Positions 1 to 11,458 of a stretch of DNA of 11,458 nucleotides are shown here, piece after piece. This stretch comes from Candidatus Iainarchaeum sp. (GTDB lineage Archaea > Iainarchaeota > Iainarchaeia > Iainarchaeales > CSSED10-239): the NCBI GenBank assembly GCA_028693335.1, contig JAQUVR010000011.1, positions 1 through 11,458 of the forward strand, given 5' to 3'. Position numbers and translations under genes: made by a program. Below the pieces are notes generated by a model, which saw only the letters and a list, made by a program, of their open reading frames with translations, did no database searches and was not told the DNA's origin. Positions within the stretch are counted from its first letter, which is position 1. The number at the start of each line of letters is the position of its first letter.

Positions 1-9
1 TCTCCAAGT

Positions 10-936
10 TTATATTAATCCAAGCAATATTAGAAGAATTGCTTCTCTTACATATACTCCGTTTTCTGCCTGTTTAAAATATAAATTATATTTAGAATCA
101 TCTACATTTTTATCAATTTCATAAACTCTTGGTAATGGATGCATTACAAATAGATTAGGATTATTTTCATTATCTAATAATTCTTTTGTAATTGTATATT
201 TTTTCTTAAGTTTTTCAATATCTATTGGTTCTGCAATTCTTTCTAGCTGTGTTCTTGTTACATATAGTATGTCTAGATCTTTTAAATTTCCAATTGGGGT
301 ATCAAGTATTTCATATTTTATTTTTTTTGAATCTAATATTTTTAGATATTCTTTTCCAATTGTAAATTCTGGAGATGAAATGAATTTTATTATTTTTGGA
401 TTATAAAGTGAGATTGCTTCAACTAATGAATGAACTGTTCTTCCATATTTTAGATCTCCAAAAAAGCCAATACTGATATCGTCTAATTTTCCAATTTTCT
501 GTTTTATTGTAAATAAATCTAACATTGTTTGTGTTGGGTGTTGATTAGTACCATCTCCTGCATTAATTATTGGTTTATCTGTTATTTCGCTTGCAAATCT
601 GGCAGCACCTTCAATTTTTGTTCTCATTATAATTAAATCACTATATCCTGAAACTATTTTTATTGTGTCACTAAAAGTTTCTCCTTTTTTTATTGCAGTT
701 GTTTGAATATCTTCAAAACCAATTGTATTTCCACCAAGTTTTTTTGTTGCAGTCTCAAAAGACATTTTTGTTCTAGTTGATGGTTCGAAAAAGAGTGTTG
801 CTATGATTTTTCCTTTTAAAAGATCTGTATATTTATCAGGGTTTTTGTAAACCTCTTGAGAAACAGATAAAATATAGTTGATCTCTTTAGTTGAAAAATC
901 ATGAATGGATATTATGTTCTTTATTTTATGGTCCAT
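10..936 (-). CDS. pyrB: aspartate carbamoyltransferase, catalytic chain
   Basis: Minus-strand ORF with the ATCase motifs FFEPSTRTK (carbamoyl-phosphate S-T-R-T site), NQHPTQ, GDLKYGRTVHS, RTQLER and HPLPR. HPLP fits ATCase rather than the HCLP of ornithine carbamoyltransferase. Start placed at ATG 934-936 (MDHKIKN...) rather than the track's TTG at 951, because GGAGG (945-949, minus strand) lies 8 nt upstream of that ATG and the TTG overlaps it. Stop is TAA at 10-12. The last 9 nt before the window edge read ACTTGGAGA on the minus strand, an SD-like GGAGA that hints at a closely following gene (pyrI would be typical) outside the window. Confidence 0.9.
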   Translation of the reverse strand: MDHKIKNIISIHDFSTKEINYILSVSQEVYKNPDKYTDLLKGKIIATLFFEPSTRTKMSFETATKKLGGNTIGFEDIQTTAIKKGETFSDTIKIVSGYSDLIIMRTKIEGAARFASEITDKPIINAGDGTNQHPTQTMLDLFTIKQKIGKLDDISIGFFGDLKYGRTVHSLVEAISLYNPKIIKFISSPEFTIGKEYLKILDSKKIKYEILDTPIGNLKDLDILYVTRTQLERIAEPIDIEKLKKKYTITKELLDNENNPNLFVMHPLPRVYEIDKNVDDSKYNLYFKQAENGVYVREAILLILLGLI

Positions 937-944
937 TCTATTTT

Positions 945-949
945 CCTCC
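945..949 (-). promoter_or_regulatory. Shine-Dalgarno-like GGAGG for pyrB
   Basis: CCTCC on the plus strand is GGAGG on the minus strand, 8 nt upstream of ATG 936. Confidence 0.6.
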
Positions 950-987
950 AAGAAAATTTCTGTTTATTTATTTAAATTATCAAAACA

Positions 988-996
988 TTTATATAT
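988..996 (-). promoter_or_regulatory. TATA-like element (ATATATAAA on minus strand) in the divergent pyrB / surface-protein intergenic region
   Basis: tttatatat at 988-996, about 52 nt upstream of the pyrB ATG. The same 9-mer lies about 44 nt upstream of the RuBisCO ATG (6582-6590). A 9-mer of A/T is easily found by chance in this composition, so support is weak. Confidence 0.25.
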
Positions 997-1072
997 GTTT
1001 TTTGTATTATTATTATTAAATAGTAATGATTTTGTGTTAAAAAGTTAAAATTGCCTATTGGTGATAACAATT

Positions 1073-4000
1073 ATGAAAAAAATATTGATCTTGTTTTTTA
1101 TGTTATTAAATCTCTCTATAGTCTTTGGATTAAGTCCGAATTTTTTTAATAATAATAGTTATTATGATCAAGTAGTAGATCTTGGTGTGTCAGACACAAA
1201 TTTATCAGGTAATTTTTTAAGAATTAGTGTTTCTGATCAATCTCAAAATTATTTTTTAAATACCTATGATTTTTCTGAAGTTAATAGTGTTGAAGTTGTT
1301 TTTGATGTTTCTGTATCTTCTAATTTAATTGTTACTTATGAAACATTAGATCTAAATGAGTTAATACTAGAAACCTATGTTTTTCCTTTGAATCTAGAAA
1401 TAATAGATCTTGGAAATTTGTATTTGTGTGATTCTATTAATTGTTCTTTTGATGAAATTTCTAATAATTATTTTGATAATAATACAGGGGTTTATTTATT
1501 TGTTGATAATAATTTAGATGTTAATTATTCAGTAGATGTTTTTTTTAAAGAAAATTTAGAAAATTCTCTTTTATTTTCAGAAAAAGATTTATCTTTTCCA
1601 TATTTTGTTTCTGTTTCTGAATATGGGGAATATAAGTTGATATTAAATTATATTTTTGAAGATCAAATATTTAAAAAAGAAATTATTTTTTTTATAAATA
1701 ACATATTGCCAGTTTCAGAAGAATACTTAAATGAACCAAATCAAAACATTATCTTTTACGATTCAATTATTGAAGAATCAGAAGATCTAAATCAAAGCAA
1801 TGTTGTTGATAATAGCTATTCTTTGCAAAATAATGACTATGCGTCTAAAGATTCTAAAAACATAAGTTTTATTATTTTAATTTTAGCAATAATTGTTTTA
1901 ATGCTTTTTATTGTTTTTTCCAATAAAAGAAATAGACGAAAAGATAGAAAAATATCTGCTATTTTGTTTTTTTTATTTTTTTTAAGTTTATTTAATTTTG
2001 TTTATTCTGATCCTCAGATTACTATTAACCTTGAAAGAGAAAATAAAATTAATGAAATTTATAGATATTATAGAACACAAAACACCATTTCTGATGATCT
2101 ATTATTTATTTTTGAAATTAATAATGGTCAACCAGTAAATAGGATCATAGAAAATTACCAAATAATTCCATATGATACTGATGGCGTAAGAAGAACACCA
2201 ACAATTAATACCACTCTTGCTCATAGAACAGTAAATAATCAACCAATTTATTCTATTGAAAACAGATTAGACAGAGTATATTTTTTTAACACTGCAAAAA
2301 GAGGAACAATTAACAATAGAAATCAATTCTTTTCTTGTTTTAATGCTGCAGACACTTATTATAGATCTGTTGATGTTTTTGATAATGTTACAATAGCTAA
2401 TGAACAAGAAACAGTTAGAAGACTTTTTTTGCCAAGAACAGAATCTGAAGTTAAAAGAGGAATATCTACTAGAACAAATAACAACACAGAATTTTTAACA
2501 AATTGTTTTAATTTTTTAGTGCGCGAAAAAATAATTCTTCCATATGATATTTTATTATACACTAGAGTAGAACTTAGAAATATTCCAGAAAATAAAGACA
2601 CTTATCAATCAAATGAACAAATAATTTTTAATCCACCTTTTTTAAATACAAATAAACCAATTAATGTAAGAATTTCTTTTAAGAAAACACCGATTACAAT
2701 ATCTTCACGATATACTTTGCCTTTTGGTTGTGAAAATCAAGAATTGGATTATTGTTATCTTAATAGACAAGATATAGAATTAATAAAAAATCAAAGTGAT
2801 GGTGGAATTATTGCAACTCCAGAATATTTTCAAAGGAGAGCAAGATATTTTAATTTACTAAATCAATTTGATTTGGTAAAAAATTTTAGTGTAAAAAAAG
2901 TTGACGGAATAGATTTAAAAGAAGTTTTAGTTGCTGCTGCAATGAAAAGAGAAAATCTCTGTTTTTCTGAAGAGAATAAAGAATATAATGAAATAATTTT
3001 TGATGTTGCAAAAGCATATAACTTTACAGATGAACAAGCATTACAATTTTGGGCAATTGTTGCAGAAAAATCAAACTGTAATATTAATTATGATAGACCA
3101 AATGATGGGTTTTTAGGCCTTTCTCAAACTAGATTAGAAGATTATTATAAACAATATGTTGATTTAGATCCAAAAATGGCTCCACAACTAAAAGAAGAAG
3201 AAAATTTACAGTATTTAGTTTTGGGAGATTTTAGAGAAATTAACACAAAAAATATTGAAAAATATGGTAGAGATAATATAATTAGATTTGGTGGTTCTCC
3301 TGGAAAGATAAACACTATGTATTGGTATTATGAATTTCTTATTAAGGCAATTAAATCAAGTAGAGATAAGCACGGATCTTTAGTTTTATTTGCTGGTGCT
3401 GATTATTTAAAAGAAACGACAAATTTGGTTAATTTTTGTGATAATTATAATCGTGAAAATAATACTCAAAACAGTTTCTATAACTTAGACACTTTTATTT
3501 TAGATAATACAAAAAAAAATATGATTGGTGTGTTTGTTTTAGGAAATTTATTAGATCAAAAAAACATTTTAAAAACAGAAGAAATCTGTAAGAGTGTTGG
3601 TGAACCAGAATCTATAATTTTAGAACACCCTATACTTTATAATACTTTGACTGGAAATTATTGTGTAGATAATGGTTATGTTCCATCAGCAACATATCCA
3701 ATAAATAAAACAATTGCTGGTGTTACTTATAATGGGTCTGGTGCTTTACTTTACAAATGTCAAAACAACAGAATCTATAGCTGTATTCCTGGAACAACAA
3801 CAACTCAAGAAGTAGTTAGTCCCCCACAGGTTTTAAGAACAGAAATTTGTTCTGCTCAATCTAGTGTTTCTGATTTTAGGGTTAGAATTTCTAAGGAGTT
3901 TAAGATTTTAATTAATTATCTTGCAATAAAACAAAAATATCAAGCAAATAAAAACTATTTTGTGGAAAATGGTTTTTTGGATGGTCAGACAAATGACCAA

Positions 4001-4894
4001 GGCATAACTAATAAATATCAAGAATATTCTAGATTAAAACATAATTATCTTGAATTGAGAAAAGAAAATTATTTAAGAATTTTAGATACTCAAGATATTT
4101 CTTTATTAAAAAGAATTAATTCTAATTATTATTTTGCAGACACTTTAAAAAACACAAGATCATTATCATCAGCAACATCTGGGCGTTGTGCACAATTTGT
4201 AAGAGAATTTGGTGCAAATATTTTTACTTTAGATCGTTATCCTACGCCTGGTGCTTCTGCAGCCTGGACATATGACACAACACCAAGTGTAAGGCAAGGG
4301 TATAATTTAATTTGGGAATCTCCAACCGTTTGTTATAGTAAACCAGGAAACACAAGATTGTCAAGAAATACTTGTGTTGAAACGCCATCTGTTCAAAGTG
4401 AAACATTAGATTTAGATTTATTACCTGATGGTGCAATATTAGGGCTTTATGTTTGTAAACAACAACACACAAATAGTAGAAATGTAACTACTTATAATTT
4501 AGAATATACTCATGTTGGAACCTATATAGGCAAAGACCAACTAGGTAATCATTTGTTGATTCATATGGGCAATTCTAGAGCAATAGAAAAAATTAGTGAT
4601 TATACTTCATTAAGATGTGGTTCTGGATTTTATCGCCAAATATTAAGAGTTTATGTTCCAAGATCAACAGGGATAACAAGTATGGAACAATTAAGAGAAT
4701 TAAAACAGAGAAATTTATTACAACCAATTACTTGGGTAGAAAATATAGATAGATTAATTGATACCACAAACGGAGAAAATTTTGAAGCGTTTTCATACCC
4801 TGAATTAGATTCTCAAGATGATATTTATACTGAAGAAACTGAATCAGAATCTTTGGAACAAGAGAATAATGATGATTTAATTATAACAGAATAA
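1073..4894 (+). CDS. giant secreted/membrane-anchored protein: fusion of module A (surface-anchored domain) and module B (putative dual cell-wall hydrolase); hypothetical
   Basis: Uninterrupted 1278-codon ORF in the track (TTG 1058). I prefer ATG 1073 (MKKILILFFMLLNLSIVFG/LSPN, a classic signal peptide) because GGTGA at 1060-1064 lies 8 nt upstream. Stop TAA at 4892-4894 is followed directly by T6 (4895-4900). Residues 1-317 (track numbering) are paralogous to the 7697..8671 product and residues 318-1278 to the 8661..>11458 product; the shared blocks are listed in the findings. Confidence 0.88.
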   Translation: MKKILILFFMLLNLSIVFGLSPNFFNNNSYYDQVVDLGVSDTNLSGNFLRISVSDQSQNYFLNTYDFSEVNSVEVVFDVSVSSNLIVTYETLDLNELILETYVFPLNLEIIDLGNLYLCDSINCSFDEISNNYFDNNTGVYLFVDNNLDVNYSVDVFFKENLENSLLFSEKDLSFPYFVSVSEYGEYKLILNYIFEDQIFKKEIIFFINNILPVSEEYLNEPNQNIIFYDSIIEESEDLNQSNVVDNSYSLQNNDYASKDSKNISFIILILAIIVLMLFIVFSNKRNRRKDRKISAILFFLFFLSLFNFVYSDPQITINLERENKINEIYRYYRTQNTISDDLLFIFEINNGQPVNRIIENYQIIPYDTDGVRRTPTINTTLAHRTVNNQPIYSIENRLDRVYFFNTAKRGTINNRNQFFSCFNAADTYYRSVDVFDNVTIANEQETVRRLFLPRTESEVKRGISTRTNNNTEFLTNCFNFLVREKIILPYDILLYTRVELRNIPENKDTYQSNEQIIFNPPFLNTNKPINVRISFKKTPITISSRYTLPFGCENQELDYCYLNRQDIELIKNQSDGGIIATPEYFQRRARYFNLLNQFDLVKNFSVKKVDGIDLKEVLVAAAMKRENLCFSEENKEYNEIIFDVAKAYNFTDEQALQFWAIVAEKSNCNINYDRPNDGFLGLSQTRLEDYYKQYVDLDPKMAPQLKEEENLQYLVLGDFREINTKNIEKYGRDNIIRFGGSPGKINTMYWYYEFLIKAIKSSRDKHGSLVLFAGADYLKETTNLVNFCDNYNRENNTQNSFYNLDTFILDNTKKNMIGVFVLGNLLDQKNILKTEEICKSVGEPESIILEHPILYNTLTGNYCVDNGYVPSATYPINKTIAGVTYNGSGALLYKCQNNRIYSCIPGTTTTQEVVSPPQVLRTEICSAQSSVSDFRVRISKEFKILINYLAIKQKYQANKNYFVENGFLDGQTNDQGITNKYQEYSRLKHNYLELRKENYLRILDTQDISLLKRINSNYYFADTLKNTRSLSSATSGRCAQFVREFGANIFTLDRYPTPGASAAWTYDTTPSVRQGYNLIWESPTVCYSKPGNTRLSRNTCVETPSVQSETLDLDLLPDGAILGLYVCKQQHTNSRNVTTYNLEYTHVGTYIGKDQLGNHLLIHMGNSRAIEKISDYTSLRCGSGFYRQILRVYVPRSTGITSMEQLRELKQRNLLQPITWVENIDRLIDTTNGENFEAFSYPELDSQDDIYTEETESESLEQENNDDLIITE
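1862..2008 (+). other. fusion joint: TM anchor of module A, basic loop, then the former signal peptide of module B
   Basis: ISFIILILAIIVLMLFIVFS (1862-1921), NKRNRRKDRK (1922-1951), ISAILFFLFFLSLFNFVYS (1952-2008), followed by DPQ. This mirrors the split pair, where A ends WFFVVGFVVFILVIWFLSNL-KKPKQNRRIIRKEYEK and B starts MKNNKLFFLFLLIFIFTQEVYA-IPQ. Confidence 0.7.
2993..3127 (+). other. lytic transglycosylase (SLT)/lysozyme-like motif region, fused copy
   Basis: IIFDVAKAYNFTDEQALQFWAIVAEKSNCNINYDRPNDGFLGLSQ resembles the family-1 SLT pattern (A-x-x-Y-x-x-D-x-x-L-L-x-A-I-x-x-x-E-S-x-x-N-P ... G-x-x-G-L-M-Q). Candidate catalytic Glu670 is at 3065-3067. It deviates from the canon in reading E-K-S instead of E-S. 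Recognised by eye only. Confidence 0.5.
3662..3850 (+). other. 63-aa cysteine-rich cassette, fused copy (Cys869-Cys931)
   Basis: CVDNGYVPSATYPINKTIAGVTYNGSGALLYKCQNNRIYSCIPGTTTTQEVVSPPQVLRTEIC aligns with compensating single-residue gaps to the split-copy cassette at 9879-10067. Shared positions: C, D, GY, S, YP, G, G, YKC, R, C-x-P, V, L, EIC. Confidence 0.7.
4172..4666 (+). other. NlpC/P60-CHAP-like papain-fold peptidase/amidase motif set, fused copy
   Basis: SGRCAQFV (Cys1044, 4187-4189) resembles the nucleophile motif (DCSGFV in NlpC/P60, QC-x-x-fV in CHAP). LLPDGAILGLY ... EYTHVGTYIGKDQLGNHLLIHMG resembles L-x-pGDlvff ... HVGIYIG-x-g-x-x-IHa, with His1152 at 4511-4513 and His1169 at 4562-4564. 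The Cys-to-His spacing of 108 residues is longer than typical and contains a Cys-bearing insert. Confidence 0.5.
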
Positions 4895-4914
4895 TTTTTT
4901 AATAATGATCATTT

Positions 4915-5067
4915 ATGACTAAAGGAACAAAAATGTTAATCTCTGGAATAACTAAAAAAAATATTAAGCCTGCAAAAAAAATAGACAAAAAAACTTTTAA
5001 TGATATAAAAGCACTTTTAGAATCTGCCAGAGAATCTTTTAATAAAAATCAAAATAAAAGAAATTGA
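4915..5067 (+). CDS. possible small lysine-rich protein (50 aa, or 44 aa from ATG 4933); hypothetical
   Basis: Not in the ORF track (too short). Translation is MTKGTKMLISGITKKNIKPAKKIDKKTFNDIKALLESARESFNKNQNKRN, with stop TGA at 5065-5067. The in-frame ATG at 4933 has AAGGA (4922-4926) 6 nt upstream. It fills most of the gap between convergent genes. In A-rich DNA an open Lys-rich frame of this length can arise by chance. Confidence 0.25.
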   Translation: MTKGTKMLISGITKKNIKPAKKIDKKTFNDIKALLESARESFNKNQNKRN

Positions 5068-5088
5068 GAAAAAATTAATTTTTCTCAG
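5065..5088. terminator. perfect 24-bp palindrome between convergent genes (candidate bidirectional terminator)
   Basis: tgagaaaaaatt|aattttttctca is exactly self-complementary. It contains the TGA of the small plus-strand ORF (5065-5067) and the TAA of RuBisCO on the minus strand (5075-5077). It presents a T6 run to transcription from either direction. The stem is AT-rich and therefore weak. Confidence 0.35.
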
Positions 5089-6538
5089 TATTAAGTGCTC
5101 TTTCTATTTCAGAACATTTTTTCTTACTAAAAAAGTCTATTGCTTCTTTTAGTTCAACATGGTCTTTTGCATACTCTTCTATAGAAATACCTTTTTTATA
5201 TGCCTCACATGCTTGAACTAAAGCTCTGGCACCCTCTTGTGTTCCTTTTGGATGAGCATGACAACCAGCGCCCATAGTGGTTATAAAGTCTACTGAGCCC
5301 ATAACATCTATAAATGGTTTTAGTAATGTAGGATTTAGTCCACCAGAAATTATAGGTGCACATTTTTTTACTCCTCTCCAAGAATCGTCTTTTAAGATAA
5401 CGTGGCCAACAGAATCTTCTTGAACTAATTTTACAGAATCTTTGTCATCTTCTGGTATCTTTGACCAAGATTGATCAAAGAAATGACCAGTTGCAGAAAA
5501 ATCTAAAATTCCATCAGCAGCAGTGACATCTTCTTTAGGGGTTCCGTCCATTTTTCCAACACCAGCAGTTCCAGTGTGTATTCCTGATGCTCCTGCAAGT
5601 CTTGCAAATTTAGATAGAACTAAAACAGAAAAACCAAATGGATTTTCTGGTCTTGTAAATGCTCCGTGTGCTGCTCTATGGAAATGTATAAATACATTTG
5701 GATATCTTCTTCTTAATGTTTGAACAGCCATCCATCCAGCAGTAATTCCATCAATTAAGAAAGCATATGATCCTTCTTCAAATCCAGCATTTATGATCAT
5801 TTCACATCTATTGATCATGGTGTCAAAATCTGATGCTGAAACATTAAATGAATGAACTTTTTTTTGTCCTGTTTCTTTTACTGCTTTATCCATAGCTTCT
5901 TTTACATGTTTAACCATTTTTTCATAAGGGCAGAAATCTTGATCTGCTTGTGGTTCATCATTCTTAACAAAATCTCCACCACCAACCCAAAAATCATAGG
6001 CAACTTCTGCATATTCTGCACTTGTTAGTCCCATCTTTGGTTTTACTATTGTACCTAATATTGGTCTATCATAAACACCAAGATATTTTCTCATATCATC
6101 AAGAGTGTAACTAGGTCCATCAAATTGTTCTAACATTGCTGGAGAGAACCAAACATCTAATAGTTTTAGGGCTGACACTTCTTTCATTCCTAAAACATTT
6201 CCAACAACATAGGTTAAAATATTTTGAACATTTCCAATCCTGTCAAACAATCTCCATGGAAAAGCTATCCAAACAAGATTTTTTTCTAAATCTAGTTTGT
6301 ATACTAAAGCATTCATTTCTCTTGAAAATGCAGTTTCAGTTTTTACCTTAAAATTAGTTCCTGTTGATGACTCTGCTGCAACTTCTGCTGCTGCTTGTAA
6401 GATGTTTAATGATCCTCCTGGTAAAAGATGGAATATACATAACATATATTCTCCATTTTTAACATTTGGAATCTCAAAATTAACATAAGCTTTTTGTTTA
6501 TCATTTAATGATTCATATAATTCTTTTTCTGTTAACAT
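5075..6538 (-). CDS. rbcL: ribulose-1,5-bisphosphate carboxylase/oxygenase large subunit, long form II/III-like type
   Basis: 487-aa ORF with the full RuBisCO active-site set (spinach equivalents in brackets). AAESSTGT has Glu56 (E60) and YVVGNV has Asn114 (N123). TIVKPKMG has K166/K168 (K175/K177). VKNDE has K192/D194/E195 (carbamylated K201, D203, E204), with the K192 codon at 5963-5965. HFHRAAH has H287/R288/H291 (H294/R295/H298). GIHTGT has H321 (H327) and GKM has K329 (K334). ISGGL has S398-G399-G400 (S379-G381), and TMGAG follows. GGAGGAG (6544-6550, minus strand) lies 5 nt upstream of ATG 6538. Confidence 0.93.
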   Translation of the reverse strand: MLTEKELYESLNDKQKAYVNFEIPNVKNGEYMLCIFHLLPGGSLNILQAAAEVAAESSTGTNFKVKTETAFSREMNALVYKLDLEKNLVWIAFPWRLFDRIGNVQNILTYVVGNVLGMKEVSALKLLDVWFSPAMLEQFDGPSYTLDDMRKYLGVYDRPILGTIVKPKMGLTSAEYAEVAYDFWVGGGDFVKNDEPQADQDFCPYEKMVKHVKEAMDKAVKETGQKKVHSFNVSASDFDTMINRCEMIINAGFEEGSYAFLIDGITAGWMAVQTLRRRYPNVFIHFHRAAHGAFTRPENPFGFSVLVLSKFARLAGASGIHTGTAGVGKMDGTPKEDVTAADGILDFSATGHFFDQSWSKIPEDDKDSVKLVQEDSVGHVILKDDSWRGVKKCAPIISGGLNPTLLKPFIDVMGSVDFITTMGAGCHAHPKGTQEGARALVQACEAYKKGISIEEYAKDHVELKEAIDFFSKKKCSEIERALNTEKN

Positions 6539-6543
6539 TTTTT

Positions 6544-6550
6544 CTCCTCC
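6544..6550 (-). promoter_or_regulatory. Shine-Dalgarno GGAGGAG for rbcL
   Basis: ctcctcc on the plus strand, 5 nt from the start codon. Confidence 0.65.
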
Positions 6551-6581
6551 ATAAAATAATATAGATAAGAAGTAAGAAGTC

Positions 6582-6590
6582 TTTATATAT
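6582..6590 (-). promoter_or_regulatory. TATA-like element (ATATATAAA on minus strand) upstream of rbcL
   Basis: tttatatat at 6582-6590, about 44 nt upstream of ATG 6538. This would leave a leader of roughly 20 nt carrying the SD. Same 9-mer as upstream of pyrB. Weak support given the composition. Confidence 0.25.
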
Positions 6591-6745
6591 TTTTGTTTTT
6601 AATTAAAAAAAACAGATCTGATTTTTAAACATTTCCATCTTATAGTTTTATAGTAAAATAAATTTACTAATTTTATTGCTGTTAAAGGTATTTTTTAACC
6701 GCAAACAACAGATTTTTGCCTTTTTTTAAGAAATCTGTGAATGTA

Positions 6746-6755
6746 AGGAGAGGAG
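6746..6755 (+). promoter_or_regulatory. Shine-Dalgarno-like AGGAGAGGAG
   Basis: Purine-rich double GGAG, 11 nt upstream of ATG 6767. Confidence 0.5.
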
Positions 6756-6766
6756 TGTTTTTAGGT

Positions 6767-7093
6767 ATGAACAAAAAAACAATATTGGTAATTATAGGTA
6801 TAACTATAATTTTAAGTACTTTTGTTTTATTTGCAAAAGTTAATGCAAAAGAAAATGGATCTTTTGCTATATCACAAAGTGATTATTTTTCAAAAAACGG
6901 TTTTACAATTAAACCCATTGAGCCAAGTCAGCCAACTTTTTTAGATATGGTTAGATGTACTTGTAATGGAGAGGCTTGTGGTAGTTCTTTTGAAAGTCAA
7001 CCAAACGTACAGGCTGGAAATTTGATTGTTTATTGTGCACAATTATGTTCTTGTAGATCTCATGTTGGCTTTACTTATGAAACTGAAGAATAG
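6767..7093 (+). CDS. small secreted cysteine-rich protein (108 aa); hypothetical
   Basis: The track ORF starts at TTG 6716. I prefer ATG 6767 (MNKKTILVIIGITIILSTFVLFAKVNA/KENG, a signal peptide) because of the upstream AGGAGAGGAG. GTG 6755 is an alternative. The mature part has six Cys clustered in the C-terminal half (RCTCNGEAC ... YCAQLCSC). Stop is TAG at 7091-7093. Confidence 0.7.
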   Translation: MNKKTILVIIGITIILSTFVLFAKVNAKENGSFAISQSDYFSKNGFTIKPIEPSQPTFLDMVRCTCNGEACGSSFESQPNVQAGNLIVYCAQLCSCRSHVGFTYETEE

Positions 7094-7108
7094 ATTTTTT
7101 TATTCTTC
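7085..7108 (+). terminator. hairpin plus T-runs after the small secreted protein gene
   Basis: gaagaata (7085-7092) pairs perfectly with tattcttc (7101-7108). The stem can extend by G-U and A-T pairs to leave a tttt loop. It overlaps the stop codon and is followed by ttgacttttt (T5 at 7114-7118). Confidence 0.4.
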
Positions 7109-7119
7109 TTGACTTTTTC

Positions 7120-7134
7120 TTTATAAATATTTTG
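7120..7134 (+). promoter_or_regulatory. TATA-box-like promoter motif tttataaatattttg (copy 1)
   Basis: An exact 15-mer that also occurs at 7666-7680. It starts 31 nt upstream of ATG 7151. The intervening 16 nt are pure A/T with no SD, which fits a leaderless or near-leaderless transcript. Confidence 0.45.
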
Positions 7135-7150
7135 ATTATTTATTTTATAT

Positions 7151-7651
7151 ATGAATGATCAACTAAAAATAAAATTTGTGTTTGTTGGTAATAGACCAAT
7201 TAAGAAACCAGAATTATTGAATAATGTTTTGTGTGTCTATCTAAATAGTGGCAGATCTTTTTTATTAGCCAGAGAGAATAGACCAGTTTTTGAATATTTA
7301 TTAAATACAAAAAATAAAAAAGATCAATTACAAATTGTGGAATTACTAAAAAACAACTCTTTTTATGAATTTGTTGGATCTGTTCCAAAAATAAAAGAAT
7401 ATTGTAAATTGTTTGATTCGTTTAATGGTTTTGAAACAATAGATCATTTAGAAAAAGTTCTAAAAAATTTTGAAAAATGGACAAATGGAAATACTTTACA
7501 AAGACAAAAAGCAATTGATGGTTTTTCTAAGGAAATTAAACAATCTATATTAAAAGAATATTTTGCAAATTTAAATGTTAGACAACCAAACCCAGTAAAA
7601 CCAACACAAAAAAAAAGAACAAATGTAACCACAAAGTCAAAAGTTAAATGA
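7151..7651 (+). CDS. hypothetical cytosolic protein (166 aa) with Lys/Thr-rich basic tail
   Basis: ATG-initiated ORF with no signal peptide or TM segment. The C-terminus is QPNPVKPTQKKRTNVTTKSKVK. No family recognised. Stop is TGA at 7649-7651. Confidence 0.7.
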   Translation: MNDQLKIKFVFVGNRPIKKPELLNNVLCVYLNSGRSFLLARENRPVFEYLLNTKNKKDQLQIVELLKNNSFYEFVGSVPKIKEYCKLFDSFNGFETIDHLEKVLKNFEKWTNGNTLQRQKAIDGFSKEIKQSILKEYFANLNVRQPNPVKPTQKKRTNVTTKSKVK

Positions 7652-7665
7652 TTGGCTAAGATAGT

Positions 7666-7680
7666 TTATAAATATTTTGT
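7666..7680 (+). promoter_or_regulatory. TATA-box-like promoter motif tttataaatattttg (copy 2)
   Basis: Identical 15-mer to 7120-7134. It starts 31 nt upstream of GTG 7697, the same spacing as copy 1 to ATG 7151. No SD lies in between. Confidence 0.45.
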
Positions 7681-7696
7681 TTAGTTATAATTATTA

Positions 7697-8671
7697 GTGA
7701 TAGACATGAATAATTTACACAAACTAATTTTTTTAATAAGCTTTTTTTTATTGTTATCTAACATCTATGCATATAATTTAGAAAATGGAAAAACATATTA
7801 TTATGGCGCCATATTAGATATTGGGATATCAGATCTTAATTCTGTTTCTAATATAGATGTAACACAAATAAATTATGTTAATATTAGTGTAAGTAGTGAT
7901 TATGAAACATATATTAGTTATGATTATAATTTAGAAGAAATATCAGAAATGCCAATCCAATTTGATAAAGATATTGCATCAAAATTAAGAATTAGTTATA
8001 TCTTTTTTGATAATGTTGATAACATAATTAAAGAAGAAGAAATAAATATTAATCTTGTTGAAAATTTAGACACTAGTAATTTTTATTTATGTAGTGATAA
8101 AGATTGTCAAAAAGATCTGTTACCAAAAAATTATGATTTTTGGATTGATGATGCTATTTTTGTTTCTGCTGATAAGATTGATTATGAGAAATATAATTAT
8201 AATATTTTTATACAAATAGATCAAGAAAATAATAATACTTTGTTATTATCAGAAGAAAACATTGTTTTTCCATATGAAATTTTTAATGATGTTATTGTTG
8301 GACATAATTATTATAAAATAATAATTGAAATGATTAGTAAAGATAATGAGATTTATTTACAAGAAATCTATTTTAGATTATCTAATTTAAAAGAAATAGA
8401 AAATAGGCAACTGGTTTCAGAAATAACAACTAACAATGAGACAACAACAAACATCTTACAGGAAAATAATAATTTAGAAACTGCTTCTCAAAAAGAGATA
8501 GATACTCAAAAAGCAGAAGAAATTGAATTAAATAAACAAGACACAAAATTAGATAATAAATGGTTTTTTGTGGTTGGATTTGTGGTTTTTATTTTAGTAA
8601 TTTGGTTTTTAAGTAATTTAAAAAAACCTAAACAAAACAGACGAATAATTAGGAAAGAATATGAAAAATAA
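7697..8671 (+). CDS. module A paralog: signal peptide, extracellular domain, polar stalk, C-terminal TM anchor; hypothetical
   Basis: The start is ambiguous between GTG 7697 (favoured by promoter-motif spacing) and ATG 7706 (MNNLHKLIFLISFFLLLSNIYA/YNL). It shares blocks with the N-terminal 317 aa of the fused protein: YYYGAILDIGISDLN / YYDQVVDLGVSDTN, NFYLCSDKDC / NLYLCDSINC, LLLSEENIVFPY / LLFSEKDLSFPY, and YKIIIE / YKLILN. The TM segment WFFVVGFVVFILVIWFLSNL (8561-8620) is followed by the basic tail KKPKQNRRIIRKEYEK. Confidence 0.85.
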   Translation: MIDMNNLHKLIFLISFFLLLSNIYAYNLENGKTYYYGAILDIGISDLNSVSNIDVTQINYVNISVSSDYETYISYDYNLEEISEMPIQFDKDIASKLRISYIFFDNVDNIIKEEEININLVENLDTSNFYLCSDKDCQKDLLPKNYDFWIDDAIFVSADKIDYEKYNYNIFIQIDQENNNTLLLSEENIVFPYEIFNDVIVGHNYYKIIIEMISKDNEIYLQEIYFRLSNLKEIENRQLVSEITTNNETTTNILQENNNLETASQKEIDTQKAEEIELNKQDTKLDNKWFFVVGFVVFILVIWFLSNLKKPKQNRRIIRKEYEK

Positions 8672-11458
8672 TAAACTATTTTTTTTATTTTTATTAATCT
8701 TTATATTTACACAAGAAGTATATGCAATTCCACAAATACCAACAGACTTAGTAAATTATAATACAGTTTATGATATTTTTAATTTTTATTATCCAAAATT
8801 TGAAACCCCATTACAAATTCCAATAAATTATACTGTTTTAGATGATGGGACATTAGCAACAAGGAATATAGGCTATAAAGACATAATTATTGGTAATTTT
8901 ATGCAAACGCCAATAGTAATTAATTCAAAATCAGAAGATCTAAATGTTACTGTAAGTTTAGAAAAAGTTTATTTTTTATCTAACAGATCTAATTTTTCAG
9001 TAGAAAATAATTGTTCTCGTGCAATTTTAAGATACTATACTGAATTAAATAATCTTTTTTTATCACCATACAATCCAAGGAACAAAGATGTTGTAATTGA
9101 TAGAATTTTTGTTCCAAGAACAAAAGAAAGAATTATTTCTTTTTTATCATCAAATGGAGTTAATAATCCTGAAGATTGTCTATTTAATCTAGAAACAAAT
9201 AGAAATCTTTATTCTTTTCCAGTTTTATTTAAATTAGAATCAAAACTAATTGGCACAAAAGAAAGTTTAGGCAAAAACTTTTCTTTTCAAGTTAAGTTTA
9301 ATCCTGATTTTTTAAGTAATATAAAACCAATTCAATATAATGTATCTTTTAGAAAAGAACCAATAAGAGTGAGTTCAACATATAGTTTTCCACGAGGTTG
9401 TGAAAATAATCCTATTGTTGGTGCCTGTTATATTACTAATCAAGATATTATAAATTTTAATGAAACTAGTATTACTTCTCCAGAAAGTGTAGCAATAAAT
9501 AATGAGATTTATAGTTTATTAAATAATTTTACTGCAGTTTCTTCATTTAAGAACAATATGTTTGAAAATATTAATACTCAAAACTTGTTAGTAGATTTAT
9601 CCTTAAAAAGAGAACAATTTTGTTTTAGAGAAGAAAATGAGGATTATACAAAAGTTATTTTTGATGTTGCAAAAGCATATGATCTGTCATTAGAAGAAGC
9701 TTTTCAATTGTGGGCATTAATTTCTGAAAGATCTAATTGTAATTATAATTTGGATCCAACCTTATATGGTTTTGCTCAAGTTGATCTAAGGGATAGAGCT
9801 GATGGTAAATTAATAGATATTGAAGAAATTACAAATACCCAAAATAATCAAACCCCAGTAGATTCTAGTTGCTCTATGTGTGGTGATGGTTATTTTTTAT
9901 CTTCTAATTACCCAACAAGATCAGCAGCTGTTGGTGGCCAAAATCTTTTAAAAGGACAAGTTTGTTATAAATGTGTCTCAGACACAAGAGTTGAGAGATG
10001 TAATCCAAATAATGGAATTGTTGGTGGTACTGTTAATATGCCACTTGCTTTAAAAAATGAAATTTGTCCAAATTTTGGTAATTTACCAGCAAATCAAACA
10101 AATATTTCTGATCAAATATCAAATACCATTCCATTACAATTAGAAGAGGAAGAGCAGTTTCAATATCTGGCTATTGGTGATTTTAATAATATAAATAATT
10201 ATATTAGAGATAATTTATATAATGGAGATACTTATGCCTATTATAAATATGGAATAGATAATAAAATTACAAATTCTGAAACCTATTTTAATTTTTTAAT
10301 TAATGCCATAAAATATAATTCTGATGAATATGGGTCAACTATATTATTTGCATCAGACTATATTAAAGCAATGAATTTTTTAGTAAAAAATAGTAGAGAA
10401 AAATCAGATAATGCTTTTGTTTTTGAAGACAATATTTTAAGCACGCCATATAGTTTAAATTCTGTTTATGTCTTATCTAATATTTTAAATTCAGAAAATA
10501 CTGAAAAAATATATGAAATTGGAAGAAATCCAAATATATTTGAATCAACAACTTTTTTTGTAAAGGATGGTAATAATATAAAAACAACTAGAGATATAAG
10601 AGTTTTAATTAATTATCTTGCAATTAAGAGAAAATATTTAAGAGATCCAGAATATTTTTTAAGATTTAATTTAAGAAGATTTAATGCTAATACTCCTGAT
10701 TTGACTTTAAAGTTAGAAAATTATAATAGATTAAATCACAAATACTGGGACGCAAAAAAAAATATTTATTTACAAACACTTGAAACTAATAATCAAAAAT
10801 TAATGTTAAAAAAAAATATTGAATATTATAGTTTTGATAGATTATTATCAATACCAGCGAGACCAAATTATCCAGTGTCATATATTTTAGATTTTGGTAA
10901 AGAAGTTTATTTAGATGGTCAAGATAATTACATTGGTTTTGGGTTGCTTGCTTGGAATTTTGATACTAAAAGAGAAGCAATAGATAATTACAATTTAATT
11001 TGGGAAGCTTCAAATATTTGTAATAATAAAATTGTTTGTGATCAATCTGTTCCAACAACCAAAGATTGTTGTTATGAGAATAGATCTTTACAAGATGGGC
11101 GAACTTACTATCCTTATTTAGATGTACTTATTGATGGTGCGATACTTGGAATCTATAATCCAACAAGTAAATATAATGATGAAAATAGAGAATACACTCA
11201 TTTGGCTATGTATATTGGAAAAACATCAGCGGGTATTCCTTTGATTATTGAAAGTACTGTTAATGGTCAAAAGATTTCTATTTTAAATAGAGAAATAAGG
11301 GATAGAGTAAAAAGAATATATGTTCCAAAATCAACAAATATTCAAAATATTAGATCAATTATTCAAAATCCATCAAGATATCCATCAACTTATGTAAAAT
11401 TAACAAATGTTCAATTACAAGAGATTCAAAGACAAGAAAGAGAAAGAATAGGTGATAC
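8661..11458 (+). CDS. module B paralog (3' end outside window): secreted protein with SLT-like motif, Cys-rich cassette and degenerate NlpC/P60-like region; hypothetical
   Basis: Absent from the ORF track because no stop occurs before the window edge. I translated it by hand: at least 932 codons from ATG 8661 (MKNNKLFFLFLLIFIFTQEVYA/IPQIPTDL...). The ATG overlaps the upstream gene by 11 nt (ATGAAAAATAA), and AGGA at 8651-8654 lies 6 nt upstream. It is collinear with residues 318-1278 of the fused protein. Shared blocks include RIFVPRTKE / RLFLPRTES, FNPDFLSNIKPI / FNPPFLNTNKPI, PRGCEN / PFGCEN, IFDVAKAY, SNCN, QYLAIGDF / QYLVLGDF, LINYLAIK, YNLIWE, DGAILG, EYTH and RIYVPKST / RVYVPRST. By comparison with the fused copy, only a few tens of codons are missing. 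Confidence 0.88.
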   Translation, partial: MKNNKLFFLFLLIFIFTQEVYAIPQIPTDLVNYNTVYDIFNFYYPKFETPLQIPINYTVLDDGTLATRNIGYKDIIIGNFMQTPIVINSKSEDLNVTVSLEKVYFLSNRSNFSVENNCSRAILRYYTELNNLFLSPYNPRNKDVVIDRIFVPRTKERIISFLSSNGVNNPEDCLFNLETNRNLYSFPVLFKLESKLIGTKESLGKNFSFQVKFNPDFLSNIKPIQYNVSFRKEPIRVSSTYSFPRGCENNPIVGACYITNQDIINFNETSITSPESVAINNEIYSLLNNFTAVSSFKNNMFENINTQNLLVDLSLKREQFCFREENEDYTKVIFDVAKAYDLSLEEAFQLWALISERSNCNYNLDPTLYGFAQVDLRDRADGKLIDIEEITNTQNNQTPVDSSCSMCGDGYFLSSNYPTRSAAVGGQNLLKGQVCYKCVSDTRVERCNPNNGIVGGTVNMPLALKNEICPNFGNLPANQTNISDQISNTIPLQLEEEEQFQYLAIGDFNNINNYIRDNLYNGDTYAYYKYGIDNKITNSETYFNFLINAIKYNSDEYGSTILFASDYIKAMNFLVKNSREKSDNAFVFEDNILSTPYSLNSVYVLSNILNSENTEKIYEIGRNPNIFESTTFFVKDGNNIKTTRDIRVLINYLAIKRKYLRDPEYFLRFNLRRFNANTPDLTLKLENYNRLNHKYWDAKKNIYLQTLETNNQKLMLKKNIEYYSFDRLLSIPARPNYPVSYILDFGKEVYLDGQDNYIGFGLLAWNFDTKREAIDNYNLIWEASNICNNKIVCDQSVPTTKDCCYENRSLQDGRTYYPYLDVLIDGAILGIYNPTSKYNDENREYTHLAMYIGKTSAGIPLIIESTVNGQKISILNREIRDRVKRIYVPKSTNIQNIRSIIQNPSRYPSTYVKLTNVQLQEIQRQERERIGD
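9654..9779 (+). other. SLT/lysozyme-like motif region, split copy
   Basis: VIFDVAKAYDLSLEEAFQLWALISERSNCNYNLDPTLYGFAQ. The candidate Glu356 (9726-9728) is conserved with Glu670 of the fused copy. GFAQ replaces GLSQ. Confidence 0.45.
9879..10067 (+). other. 63-aa cysteine-rich cassette, split copy (Cys407-Cys469)
   Basis: CGDGYFLSSNYPTRSAAVGGQNLLKGQVCYKCVSDTRVERCNPNNGIVGGTVNMPLALKNEIC is homologous to 3662-3850. Here it lies upstream of the QYL-x-x-GDF block rather than downstream of it. Confidence 0.7.
10854..11333 (+). other. NlpC/P60-like region lacking the nucleophile Cys, split copy
   Basis: PVSYILDFG aligns without gaps to CAQFVREFG, putting Pro738 (10872-10874) opposite Cys1044. LIDGAILGIY ... 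EYTHLAMYIGKTSAGIPLIIES keeps His847 (11199-11201). Glu864 (11250-11252) replaces the second His at the identical 17-residue spacing. Confidence 0.45.

Follow-up and report, generated by a model that had tools for sequence, protein, structure and literature searches.

A giant surface protein of an iainarchaeal genome with a divergent NlpC/P60-like domain, a candidate Cys-His-His centre and an SLT-related module

In this study, we undertook multiple sequence, profile and structure-model analyses of a large open reading frame (ORF) in an 11,458-nucleotide (nt) stretch of DNA from Candidatus Iainarchaeum sp. (assembly GCA_028693335.1, contig JAQUVR010000011.1, positions 1 to 11,458; the whole of this stretch is referred to here as the window). 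A sequence-only reading of the window had proposed that this ORF encodes a secreted dual cell-wall hydrolase. The Iainarchaeota are DPANN archaea (Nanobdellati), a group whose means of attachment and feeding are largely unknown and most of whose lineage-specific surface proteins are annotated as hypothetical. Our analyses lead us to consider, with moderate confidence, that the product is a membrane-anchored, outward-facing fusion of two modules, A and B, that B contains an SLT-related module and a C-terminal NlpC/P60-like domain with an intact Cys-His-His centre, and that the protein is a putative enzyme.

The locus and the architecture of the protein

The window has a G+C content of ~25% and contains the following genes:

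10-951, minus strand: aspartate/ornithine carbamoyltransferase, at the left end of the window
1073-4894, plus strand: fused A+B surface protein, a 1273-amino-acid (aa) ORF with M1 at nt 1073; six orthologues have the same architecture
5075-6538, minus strand: form III-type RuBisCO large subunit, convergent to the 1273-aa ORF
6716-7093, adjoining RuBisCO: small ORF of 125 aa, no family, 65% identity to its counterpart in contig L001
7151-7651, adjoining RuBisCO: small ORF of 166 aa, no family, 51% identity to its counterpart in L001
7697-8671, plus strand: free-standing A-like gene, 324 aa, 28% identity to module A at an expectation value (E) of 2e-16
8661-11456, plus strand: B-like paralogue of >932 aa with the motif SERS...GFAQ, running off the contig end

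The type of organism that had been guessed from the letters was correct: it is a tiny, AT-rich archaeon with a salvage-type RuBisCO. The synteny of RuBisCO with the big ORF is kept in the orthologous contig L001 (57% identical), and since the two small ORFs are also kept there, they are likely to be real genes. Archaeal markers of the orthologous contigs include an archaeal-type AdoMet synthase, a tRNA deacylase and RuBisCO in conserved synteny. Neither Rfam nor a tRNA scan gave a match in the window. The 1273-aa product is identical to MDD3244700.1 at NCBI, which is annotated as a hypothetical protein of a Candidatus ainarchaeum sp. metagenome-assembled genome (MAG).

The peptides on which the dual hydrolase proposal was based were all located in this one ORF on the plus strand, inside positions 2993-4666: AKAYNFTDEQ starts at nt 3008, GFLGLSQ at nt 3107, GRCAQFV at nt 4181, LPDGAILGLY at nt 4421, THVGTYIGK at nt 4508 and LLIHMG at nt 4553. 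The residue numbers used at that time are those used here plus 5, as the earlier count began at the TTG at 1058, and hence E670, C1044 and H1152 correspond to E665, C1039 and H1147. The limits of the two domains concerned proved slightly wider than 2993-4666 (residues ~622-965, nt 2936-3967, and residues ~1036-1215, nt 4178-4717), and the layout of the whole protein, all on the plus strand, is as follows:

1073-1858, plus strand: signal-like N-terminus (residues 1-20) and module A (21-262), from hydropathy and homologues
1859-2008, plus strand: fusion junction, comprising the C-terminal transmembrane (TM) helix of A (263-285), the loop NKRNRRKDRK and the signal-like TM helix of B (292-312)
2009-2935, plus strand: N-terminal region of module B (residues 313-621), kept in paralogues, no recognisable family
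2936-3967, plus strand: mostly helical domain with the SLT-like motif (residues 622-965)
3620-3877, plus strand: Cys-rich beta insert (residues ~850-935) inside the SLT-like domain
4178-4717, plus strand: divergent NlpC/P60-superfamily (papain-like) domain (residues 1036-1215)
4760-4891, plus strand: acidic C-terminal tail with 16 Asp/Glu in 44 residues

From hydropathy, the N-terminus is predicted to be signal-like, and residues 263-285 and 292-312 to form two hydrophobic helices with the basic loop between them. These helices are predicted to form a membrane hairpin that would leave residues 21-262 and 313-1273 both outside the cell, so that the proposed secreted or surface-tethered nature of the polypeptide is upheld by prediction. 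Module A has no recognisable family and is homologous to separate genes of ~290-324 aa located 5' of B-like genes elsewhere; it might serve as an anchor, a partner or an inhibitor. The Cys-rich insert at ~850-935 is present in the orthologues and missing from the paralogue clade and distant relatives. The paralogue clade has a different Cys-rich insert (CSMCGDGY...CYKC...RC) directly 3' of its G-F-A-Q motif, at ~9790-10150 in the window paralogue; both kinds of insert may be subdomains stabilised by disulfides or metal. The acidic character of the tail is kept among the orthologues.

The papain-like domain

An AlphaFold model of the C-terminal domain was built on 16 sequences, with a predicted local distance difference test (pLDDT) score of 80 and a predicted template modelling score of 0.83. 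In this model C1039 (nt 4187-4189) is the first residue of helix 1039-1050, strand 1147-1154 begins with H1147 (nt 4511-4513), and H1164 (nt 4562-4564) lies within the next strand, 1160-1165. The peptide LPDGAILGLY also forms a strand, and the H1164 strand is followed by two further strands and a helix. NlpC/P60 enzymes have been defined by a dyad of Cys and His plus a polar third residue (PMC4600125), and the modelled strand order agrees with the classical topology in that definition.

Profile comparison placed the same three residues on the active site of known enzymes. The reference alignment consisted of four E. coli and two archaeal proteins, all verified as NlpC/P60 members by Pfam (E 2e-8 to 1e-37). 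Against these six domains, hhalign matched a 34-sequence alignment of the family over 104 columns with a probability (Prob) of 73.9% and P 2.8e-5, and an alignment restricted to the 19 Cys-bearing members gave nearly identical values (Prob 73.8%, P 2.9e-5; 100-104 columns across runs). C1039 was paired with the Cys of D-C-S-G, H1147 with the His of H-V-G-I-Y and H1164 with the His of F-I-H-A-S. The score of 37.5 compares with 9.9±1.6 for 60 column shuffles (maximum 15.9), and as a negative control the papain-like family scored 9.8-11.4 against SLT domains (P 0.5-0.8). A Foldseek search of the model against BFVD/phage proteins returned a protein annotated "Hydrolase" as the best match (E 3.9e-3, prob 0.99), followed by CHAP proteins and a Lysin A peptidase, none of these matches being significant. 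The sub-threshold Pfam matches to PF05708 (E 3e-4 to 5e-4), a family of the same superfamily, and the make-up of the Foldseek lists point in the same direction.

Conservation of the site among the relatives is extensive. The nucleophile Cys is present in 27 of the 32 relatives that cover it and His1147 in 33 of 34, and all Cys-bearing relatives have either His or Gln at the third position. Seven residues (C1039, A1064, W1065, G1120, G1124, H1147 and G1153) are invariant in 19 Cys-bearing sequences with identities down to 16%. The five Cys-less relatives all have Pro at the Cys site, and in four, namely the window paralogue, P0007, P0008 and P0009, the second His has likewise given way to Glu or Gln, with P0007 having the first His replaced too. 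In the window paralogue (8661-11456) the substitutions are Pro for Cys and Glu for the second His, leaving a degenerate papain-like domain. The fifth, P0006, has kept both His and has gained a canonical PF00877 domain at its C-terminus. Such correlated loss of the Cys and the second His is as expected if the three residues act together, and the conservation pattern supports a working Cys1039-His1147-His1164 triad.

Judged against the controls, the Cys/His/His set is clearly beyond chance, and the profile similarity to NlpC/P60 appears moderate, not overwhelming. The interpretation of the C-terminal domain as a highly divergent, non-permuted member of NlpC/P60 with an intact Cys1039-His1147-His1164 centre is therefore supported, as had been proposed from the NlpC/P60-CHAP-like motifs: the Cys stands at a helix N-terminus, the two His lie on consecutive strands and the profile match runs over all three residues. 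Since no Pfam model reaches threshold, we regard the domain as a new, rare clade of this known superfamily, most likely with a putative cysteine amidase/endopeptidase function.

The SLT-like domain

The AlphaFold model of the second domain (361 residues, pLDDT 71) is mostly helical. Helix 653-667 ends in E665-K666-S667 (nt 3065-3073), with S667 as its terminus, and is followed by a short hairpin containing GFLGLSQ (nt 3107-3127). Across 17 aligned sequences F643, E654, S667, G682 and Q685 are invariant, with S667, G682 and Q685 so in 17-19, and A646, K647, Q658, W660 and C669 are nearly so. Hhalign aligned G682 and Q685 to the GLMQ of SLT domains, and GFLGLSQ thus represents a G-L-M-Q-type motif ~15-20 residues past the Glu region.

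The position of the Glu is less straightforward. In the window protein no Glu in this region directly precedes the Ser, the order being E665-K666-S667. It is K666 that falls on the Glu of Slt70 and of phage SLTs, and also on that of the distant relatives in the family itself, whose motif is the canonical A-E-S-G-C...G-I-G-Q. The sixth position after W660 is K, R or L in the close family, in which the Glu at the fifth position is invariant (E665, 11 of 11). As the spacing from W660 to S667 and from W660 to C669 is the same in relatives with contiguous E-S, the Glu has shifted by one position and no residue has been inserted. Given this spacing and the hhalign alignments, we read the motif as shifted in register and reject the additional residue that had been suggested to separate Glu from Ser.

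Searches with this domain gave mixed results. No Pfam model, PF01464 included, matched at E values up to 10, except for PF18013 (Phage_lysozyme2, phage tail lysozyme), which reached E 0.06-0.075 in two distant relatives only. Hhalign against five E. coli SLT domains was no better than the negative controls (P ~0.1). After the reference set had been enlarged to 15 by the addition of ten phage SLT domains retrieved with tblastn, three family profiles scored ~26-29 (Prob 10-21%, P 1.1-3e-3), compared with 9.5±1.5 for shuffles, 11-13 for a reversed alignment and 9.8-18.9 for real negative controls. The SLT-like set is therefore modestly above chance and weakly supported as a relationship inferred from sequence, and the resemblance to the SLT N-terminal lobe is probably real without extending to the A-Y-N-x-G lobe. 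Of the lysozyme claim, the conserved motif and its hhalign P of ~1e-3 have stood, and support from Pfam, PDB sequences and Foldseek, as well as a Glu at the catalytic position, has not been forthcoming.

Two further features of the motif helix were observed. E654 (nt 3032-3034) lies in its cap, L-T-[DE]-E-[EQ], and is invariant in 17 of 17 sequences, including those with E-S in the other register, and has no counterpart in the reference SLT domains. C630 and C669, both nearly invariant, flank the helix.

Relatives and the A+B cassette

The family is very small. Six orthologues, with 98-44% identity, came up in a word-indexed search of 5.8 billion proteins, 15 proteins were matched when 1.84 billion cluster representatives were searched exhaustively with HMMER profiles, and a scan of one genome per species for 185,579 species found two loci, both in MAGs of uncultured archaea. 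The relatives form four groups: (i) the orthologue clade P0001-P0006; (ii) the paralogue clade P0007-P0011, which includes the second ORF of the window (8661 onward); (iii) distant proteins that share the SLT-like helical module only (P0014, P0015, P0017, P0018, P0020 and P0021), together with extra C-terminal domains of P0007 and P0009; and (iv) ~20 small stand-alone proteins of 116-246 aa that consist of an N-terminal hydrophobic segment and the papain-like module. Some members of group (iv) derive from Pacearchaeota or "archaeon" MAGs, and none of the group is annotated by Pfam; in Pacearchaeota-like genomes the papain-like clade is also found as secreted stand-alone proteins of ~200 aa. 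The neighbourhoods of the stand-alone homologues hold housekeeping or mobile-element genes and no informative operon. That of P0016 (L014:1-7726) has small ORFs with YopX, Zn-ribbon and nSTAND3 matches and resembles the surroundings of a virus or mobile element, whereas P0031 and P0033 lie among housekeeping genes. A tblastn search of 50,697 phage records with a distant relative yielded a single match at E = 10, to a T7-like internal virion protein, which we do not count as evidence.

Within the window itself, the 324-aa A-like gene (7697-8671) overlaps the start of the B-like paralogue by 11 nt, and the two represent the unfused equivalent of the 1273-aa ORF. Comparable A-then-B pairs with overlaps of 4-11 nt were found at locus L004, three times, and at L017, once; in one pair at L004 the A gene precedes a canonical NlpC/P60 protein of 493 aa. 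When unfused, A proteins have a TM helix and a basic tail at their C-terminus and B proteins begin with a signal peptide; the junction of the 1273-aa protein keeps the TM helix and basic tail of A and the signal-like helix of B. From these pairs and the adjacent unfused pair we conclude that the 1273-aa ORF is, on comparative grounds, a gene fusion of a recurrent two-gene A+B cassette.

The catalytic modules of the cassette differ between relatives. In P0007 and P0009 a second SLT-like copy with canonical E-S, in the form A-E-S-G-C...G-I-G-Q, is located after the dead papain-like domain, and in P0006 the canonical NlpC/P60 domain stands after the Cys-less one. This suggests that catalytic modules may have undergone repeated decay and replacement.

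Interpretation and alternative explanations

The reading we favour is that of an anchored, outward-facing A+B protein with a papain-like active centre and an SLT-related module. In this reading the thiolate of C1039, at the N-terminus of its helix, would be activated by H1147, with H1164 orienting H1147; its target would be an amide bond, located either in a peptide stem or in a cross-link, in the wall of another cell. The helical domain at ~622-965 would be a distant relative of the N-terminal lobe of SLT/GH23 lysozyme-like enzymes, and because Lys stands at the canonical Glu position and a conserved Glu directly before it, the domain may be glycan-binding or atypically catalytic rather than a standard lytic transglycosylase. 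The analysis shows the motifs and how they are conserved, where they fall on the secondary structure, the links between profiles, and the architecture of cassette and fusion. The enzymatic activity, the substrate (peptidoglycan, pseudomurein or another envelope polymer) and a role in host attachment or breaching are inferred. Breaching of a host wall would be plausible and in agreement with published ideas on DPANN archaea (PMC8204110, PMC12352652). By the grounds for refutation that the sequence-only reading had set out, lack of the fold in profile and structure searches or lack of conservation of the candidate residues, the papain-like half came through and the lysozyme half failed in part. 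A dual hydrolase is therefore not established, and this reading gives way to that of a cysteine peptidase/amidase joined to an SLT-related module of uncertain activity.

Several results weigh against this interpretation. No model in Pfam, NCBIfam or PHROG was above threshold for either domain, whether searched with the protein, its segments, relatives or consensus sequences, and PF00877 and PF05257 in particular had no match on the window protein or on family consensus sequences. Searches of PDB sequences with phmmer and hmmsearch, using the protein and four family profiles, gave only noise for both domains. The hhalign probability for NlpC/P60 of 74% falls short of >95%. Foldseek matches of the papain-like model in the PDB were non-significant (best E 0.14), although CHAP, NlpC/P60 and papain-like entries dominated the top of the list, which included the S. 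aureus CHAP amidase 5t1q, PcsB, T. vaginalis NlpC1, papain-like toxins and USPs. For the SLT-like model the PDB matches were likewise noise (best E 0.91), with the GH23-type structures 3csq and 3w6e at E 3-5; large inserts and the pLDDT of 71 probably hurt this search. The SLT similarity spans only ~50 columns, the catalytic Glu position is K666 in every alignment with E665 one earlier, and the third motif, A-Y-N-x-G, which was found in 15 of 15 reference SLT domains, is missing from the window protein. Domains that bind peptidoglycan (LysM, SH3b or PG_binding) were not detected in the protein. In addition, DPANN hosts are often archaea without murein, and proteins of the NlpC/P60 fold can be acyltransferases, phospholipases or proteases.

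Foremost among the alternatives is a true bifunctional wall hydrolase, in which residues 622-965 would act as a lytic transglycosylase or muramidase, with E665 or E654 as the acid, and residues 1036-1215 as an endopeptidase or amidase, comparable to CwlT and phage tail lysins. The significance of the SLT-register motif and the invariance of E665 and E654 noted above would fit this explanation, as would the lysozyme-then-NlpC/P60 order shared with a tail fibre of Bacillus phage Pony and with CwlT (PMC4600125, refs 13-14). The two domain types are also combined in independent lineages, P0014 and P0009, the latter having canonical E-S in its second copy. We nevertheless consider it unlikely: the close family has K, R or L throughout at the canonical Glu position, the SLT-like domain is without fold and hidden Markov model support, and the second, proper E-S copy in P0007 and P0009 suggests that the internal copy may not suffice alone.

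It is rather improbable, in our judgement, that the papain-like domain acts on a target other than a wall, be it as a host-surface protease or transglutaminase or as an LRAT/HRASLS-type acyltransferase or phospholipase for the uptake of host lipids, with the helical domain serving as an adhesin. The NlpC/P60 superfamily is established to include such activities (Anantharaman & Aravind 2003, cited in PMC4600125), and both the presence of USP proteases and papain-like toxins among the top Foldseek PDB matches and the lack of a detected peptidoglycan-binding module are compatible with them. However, the profiles agree best with murein endopeptidases of the classical, non-permuted type. LRAT-type enzymes have a permuted order, for which the candidate Cys is not conserved, and canonical NlpC/P60 and SLT-like modules have been recruited in the same proteins and cassettes.

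Quite improbable is the explanation that both modules are non-catalytic relics, or pseudoenzymes, of an adhesin or structural envelope protein. The loss of the nucleophile in the window paralogue and P0006-P0009, the out-of-register Glu of the SLT-like motif and the lack of matches to database models are what such a protein could show. The window protein and 26 relatives, however, keep the Cys, the His and the third His/Gln, and seven invariant residues across identities of 16-39% are a pattern typical of purifying selection on an active site.

Hardly tenable, and already disfavoured, is a circularly permuted YaeF/YiiX-type (Peptidase_C92) amidase with the downstream C1182 as its nucleophile, for which PF05708 is the closest and only near Pfam family (same superfamily; E 3e-4 to 5e-4, 21 bits vs. 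a cut-off of 27) and C1182 is present in all six orthologues including P0006, which is without C1039, but the PF05708 matches take in the two His strands alone (positions 20-72 of the 166 in the profile), C1182 lies just 18 residues past H1164 in a loop deleted in paralogues, hhalign puts C1039 on the classical nucleophile, and C1182 was rejected as it is restricted to the orthologue clade and missing from all other relatives.

Going beyond the favoured reading of the single protein, the A+B cassette could tentatively be viewed as a DPANN-specific, fast-evolving "envelope-attack" system, in which an unrecognised clade of NlpC/P60-like amidases would be joined to an SLT-derived module with a re-positioned acid and decayed catalytic centres would be replaced by newly gained canonical NlpC/P60 or E-S lysozyme modules in the course of an arms race; we put this forward as doubtful. 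If it is true, these proteins would open the walls of bacterial or archaeal hosts and offer an experimental handle on host identity and the mechanism of attachment, and their cleavage specificity (murein stem types vs. pseudomurein) could reveal the hosts. More immediately, a candidate catalytic centre, C1039/H1147/H1164, has been assigned to one giant DPANN surface protein, and ~35 sequences, small stand-alone secreted forms among them, have been grouped as an NlpC/P60-like family that had not been annotated. The displaced Glu means that the SLT-like module should not be annotated as a lytic transglycosylase without an assay. The fused and unfused forms of the cassette and the decay and replacement of its domains provide concrete constructs and comparisons for experiments.

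Comparison with known systems

The E. coli proteins MepS, MepH, NlpC and YafL (PF00877) share with the papain-like domain the Cys at a helix N-terminus, a G-D/G-x-hydrophobic strand and the H-V-G-x-Y-x-G and x-I-H strands, with ~100 columns aligned, although identity to these murein endopeptidases is only ~15-19%. In the window protein, unlike in these, 70 inserted residues separate the Cys helix from the first core strand, G-x-C-A-x-[FY] stands in place of D-C-S-G, and there is an extra conserved A-W dipeptide.

A closer counterpart in architecture is CwlT of Gram-positive conjugative elements, which has an N-terminal lysozyme-like muramidase and a C-terminal NlpC/P60 DL-endopeptidase (PMC4600125, refs 13-14; PDB 4FDY). 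In both proteins a single exported polypeptide carries the lysozyme-like module first and the Cys-His-His NlpC/P60-type module, of the classical non-permuted order, after it, with local opening of a wall as the presumed purpose. The domains of CwlT are recognised by Pfam and by structure, whereas those of the window protein reach no threshold and its canonical Glu is replaced. The window protein is also archaeal and ~4 times the size of CwlT; a predicted membrane hairpin anchors it, module A is fused to it, and it has long inserts, one Cys-rich and one between the Cys helix and the sheet.

Among phages, Bacillus phage Pony has a "lytic tail fiber protein, SLT and NLP/P60 peptidase domain", and the YomI tape-measure protein of SPbeta has an SLT domain. 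As in such tail lysins, modules of the glycan-cleaving and papain-like peptidase types are combined on a large extracellular protein of a presumed wall-piercing kind. The SLT modules of these phages, unlike that of the window protein, have canonical E-S and A-Y-N-x-G, and the window gene is chromosomal, adjoining housekeeping genes (RuBisCO and aspartate carbamoyltransferase) in conserved synteny.

The nearest precedents in biology are from DPANN archaea themselves. Castelle et al. (2021) described large extracellular proteins with murein-like transglycosylases in small-genome Pace-/Woesearchaeota with form III RuBisCO (PMC8204110), and Strock et al. (2025) found archaeal peptidoglycan hydrolases, prominent in Nanoarchaeota, that kill bacteria (PMC12352652). 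The present family resembles these systems in belonging to a small-genome DPANN archaeon with a form III-like RuBisCO and in the idea of big secreted proteins that would bind or degrade the walls of other cells. It differs in that those systems were found via recognisable Pfam catalytic domains, whereas this family is invisible to Pfam, is very rare, and has a peptidase rather than a transglycosylase as its best-supported catalytic module. The concept of wall hydrolases in archaea, and in DPANN in particular, has thus already been published and is extended here, with no new principle; what is new is a rare family invisible to curated models, with its candidate triad, its displaced Glu and its A+B cassette in both fused and unfused form.

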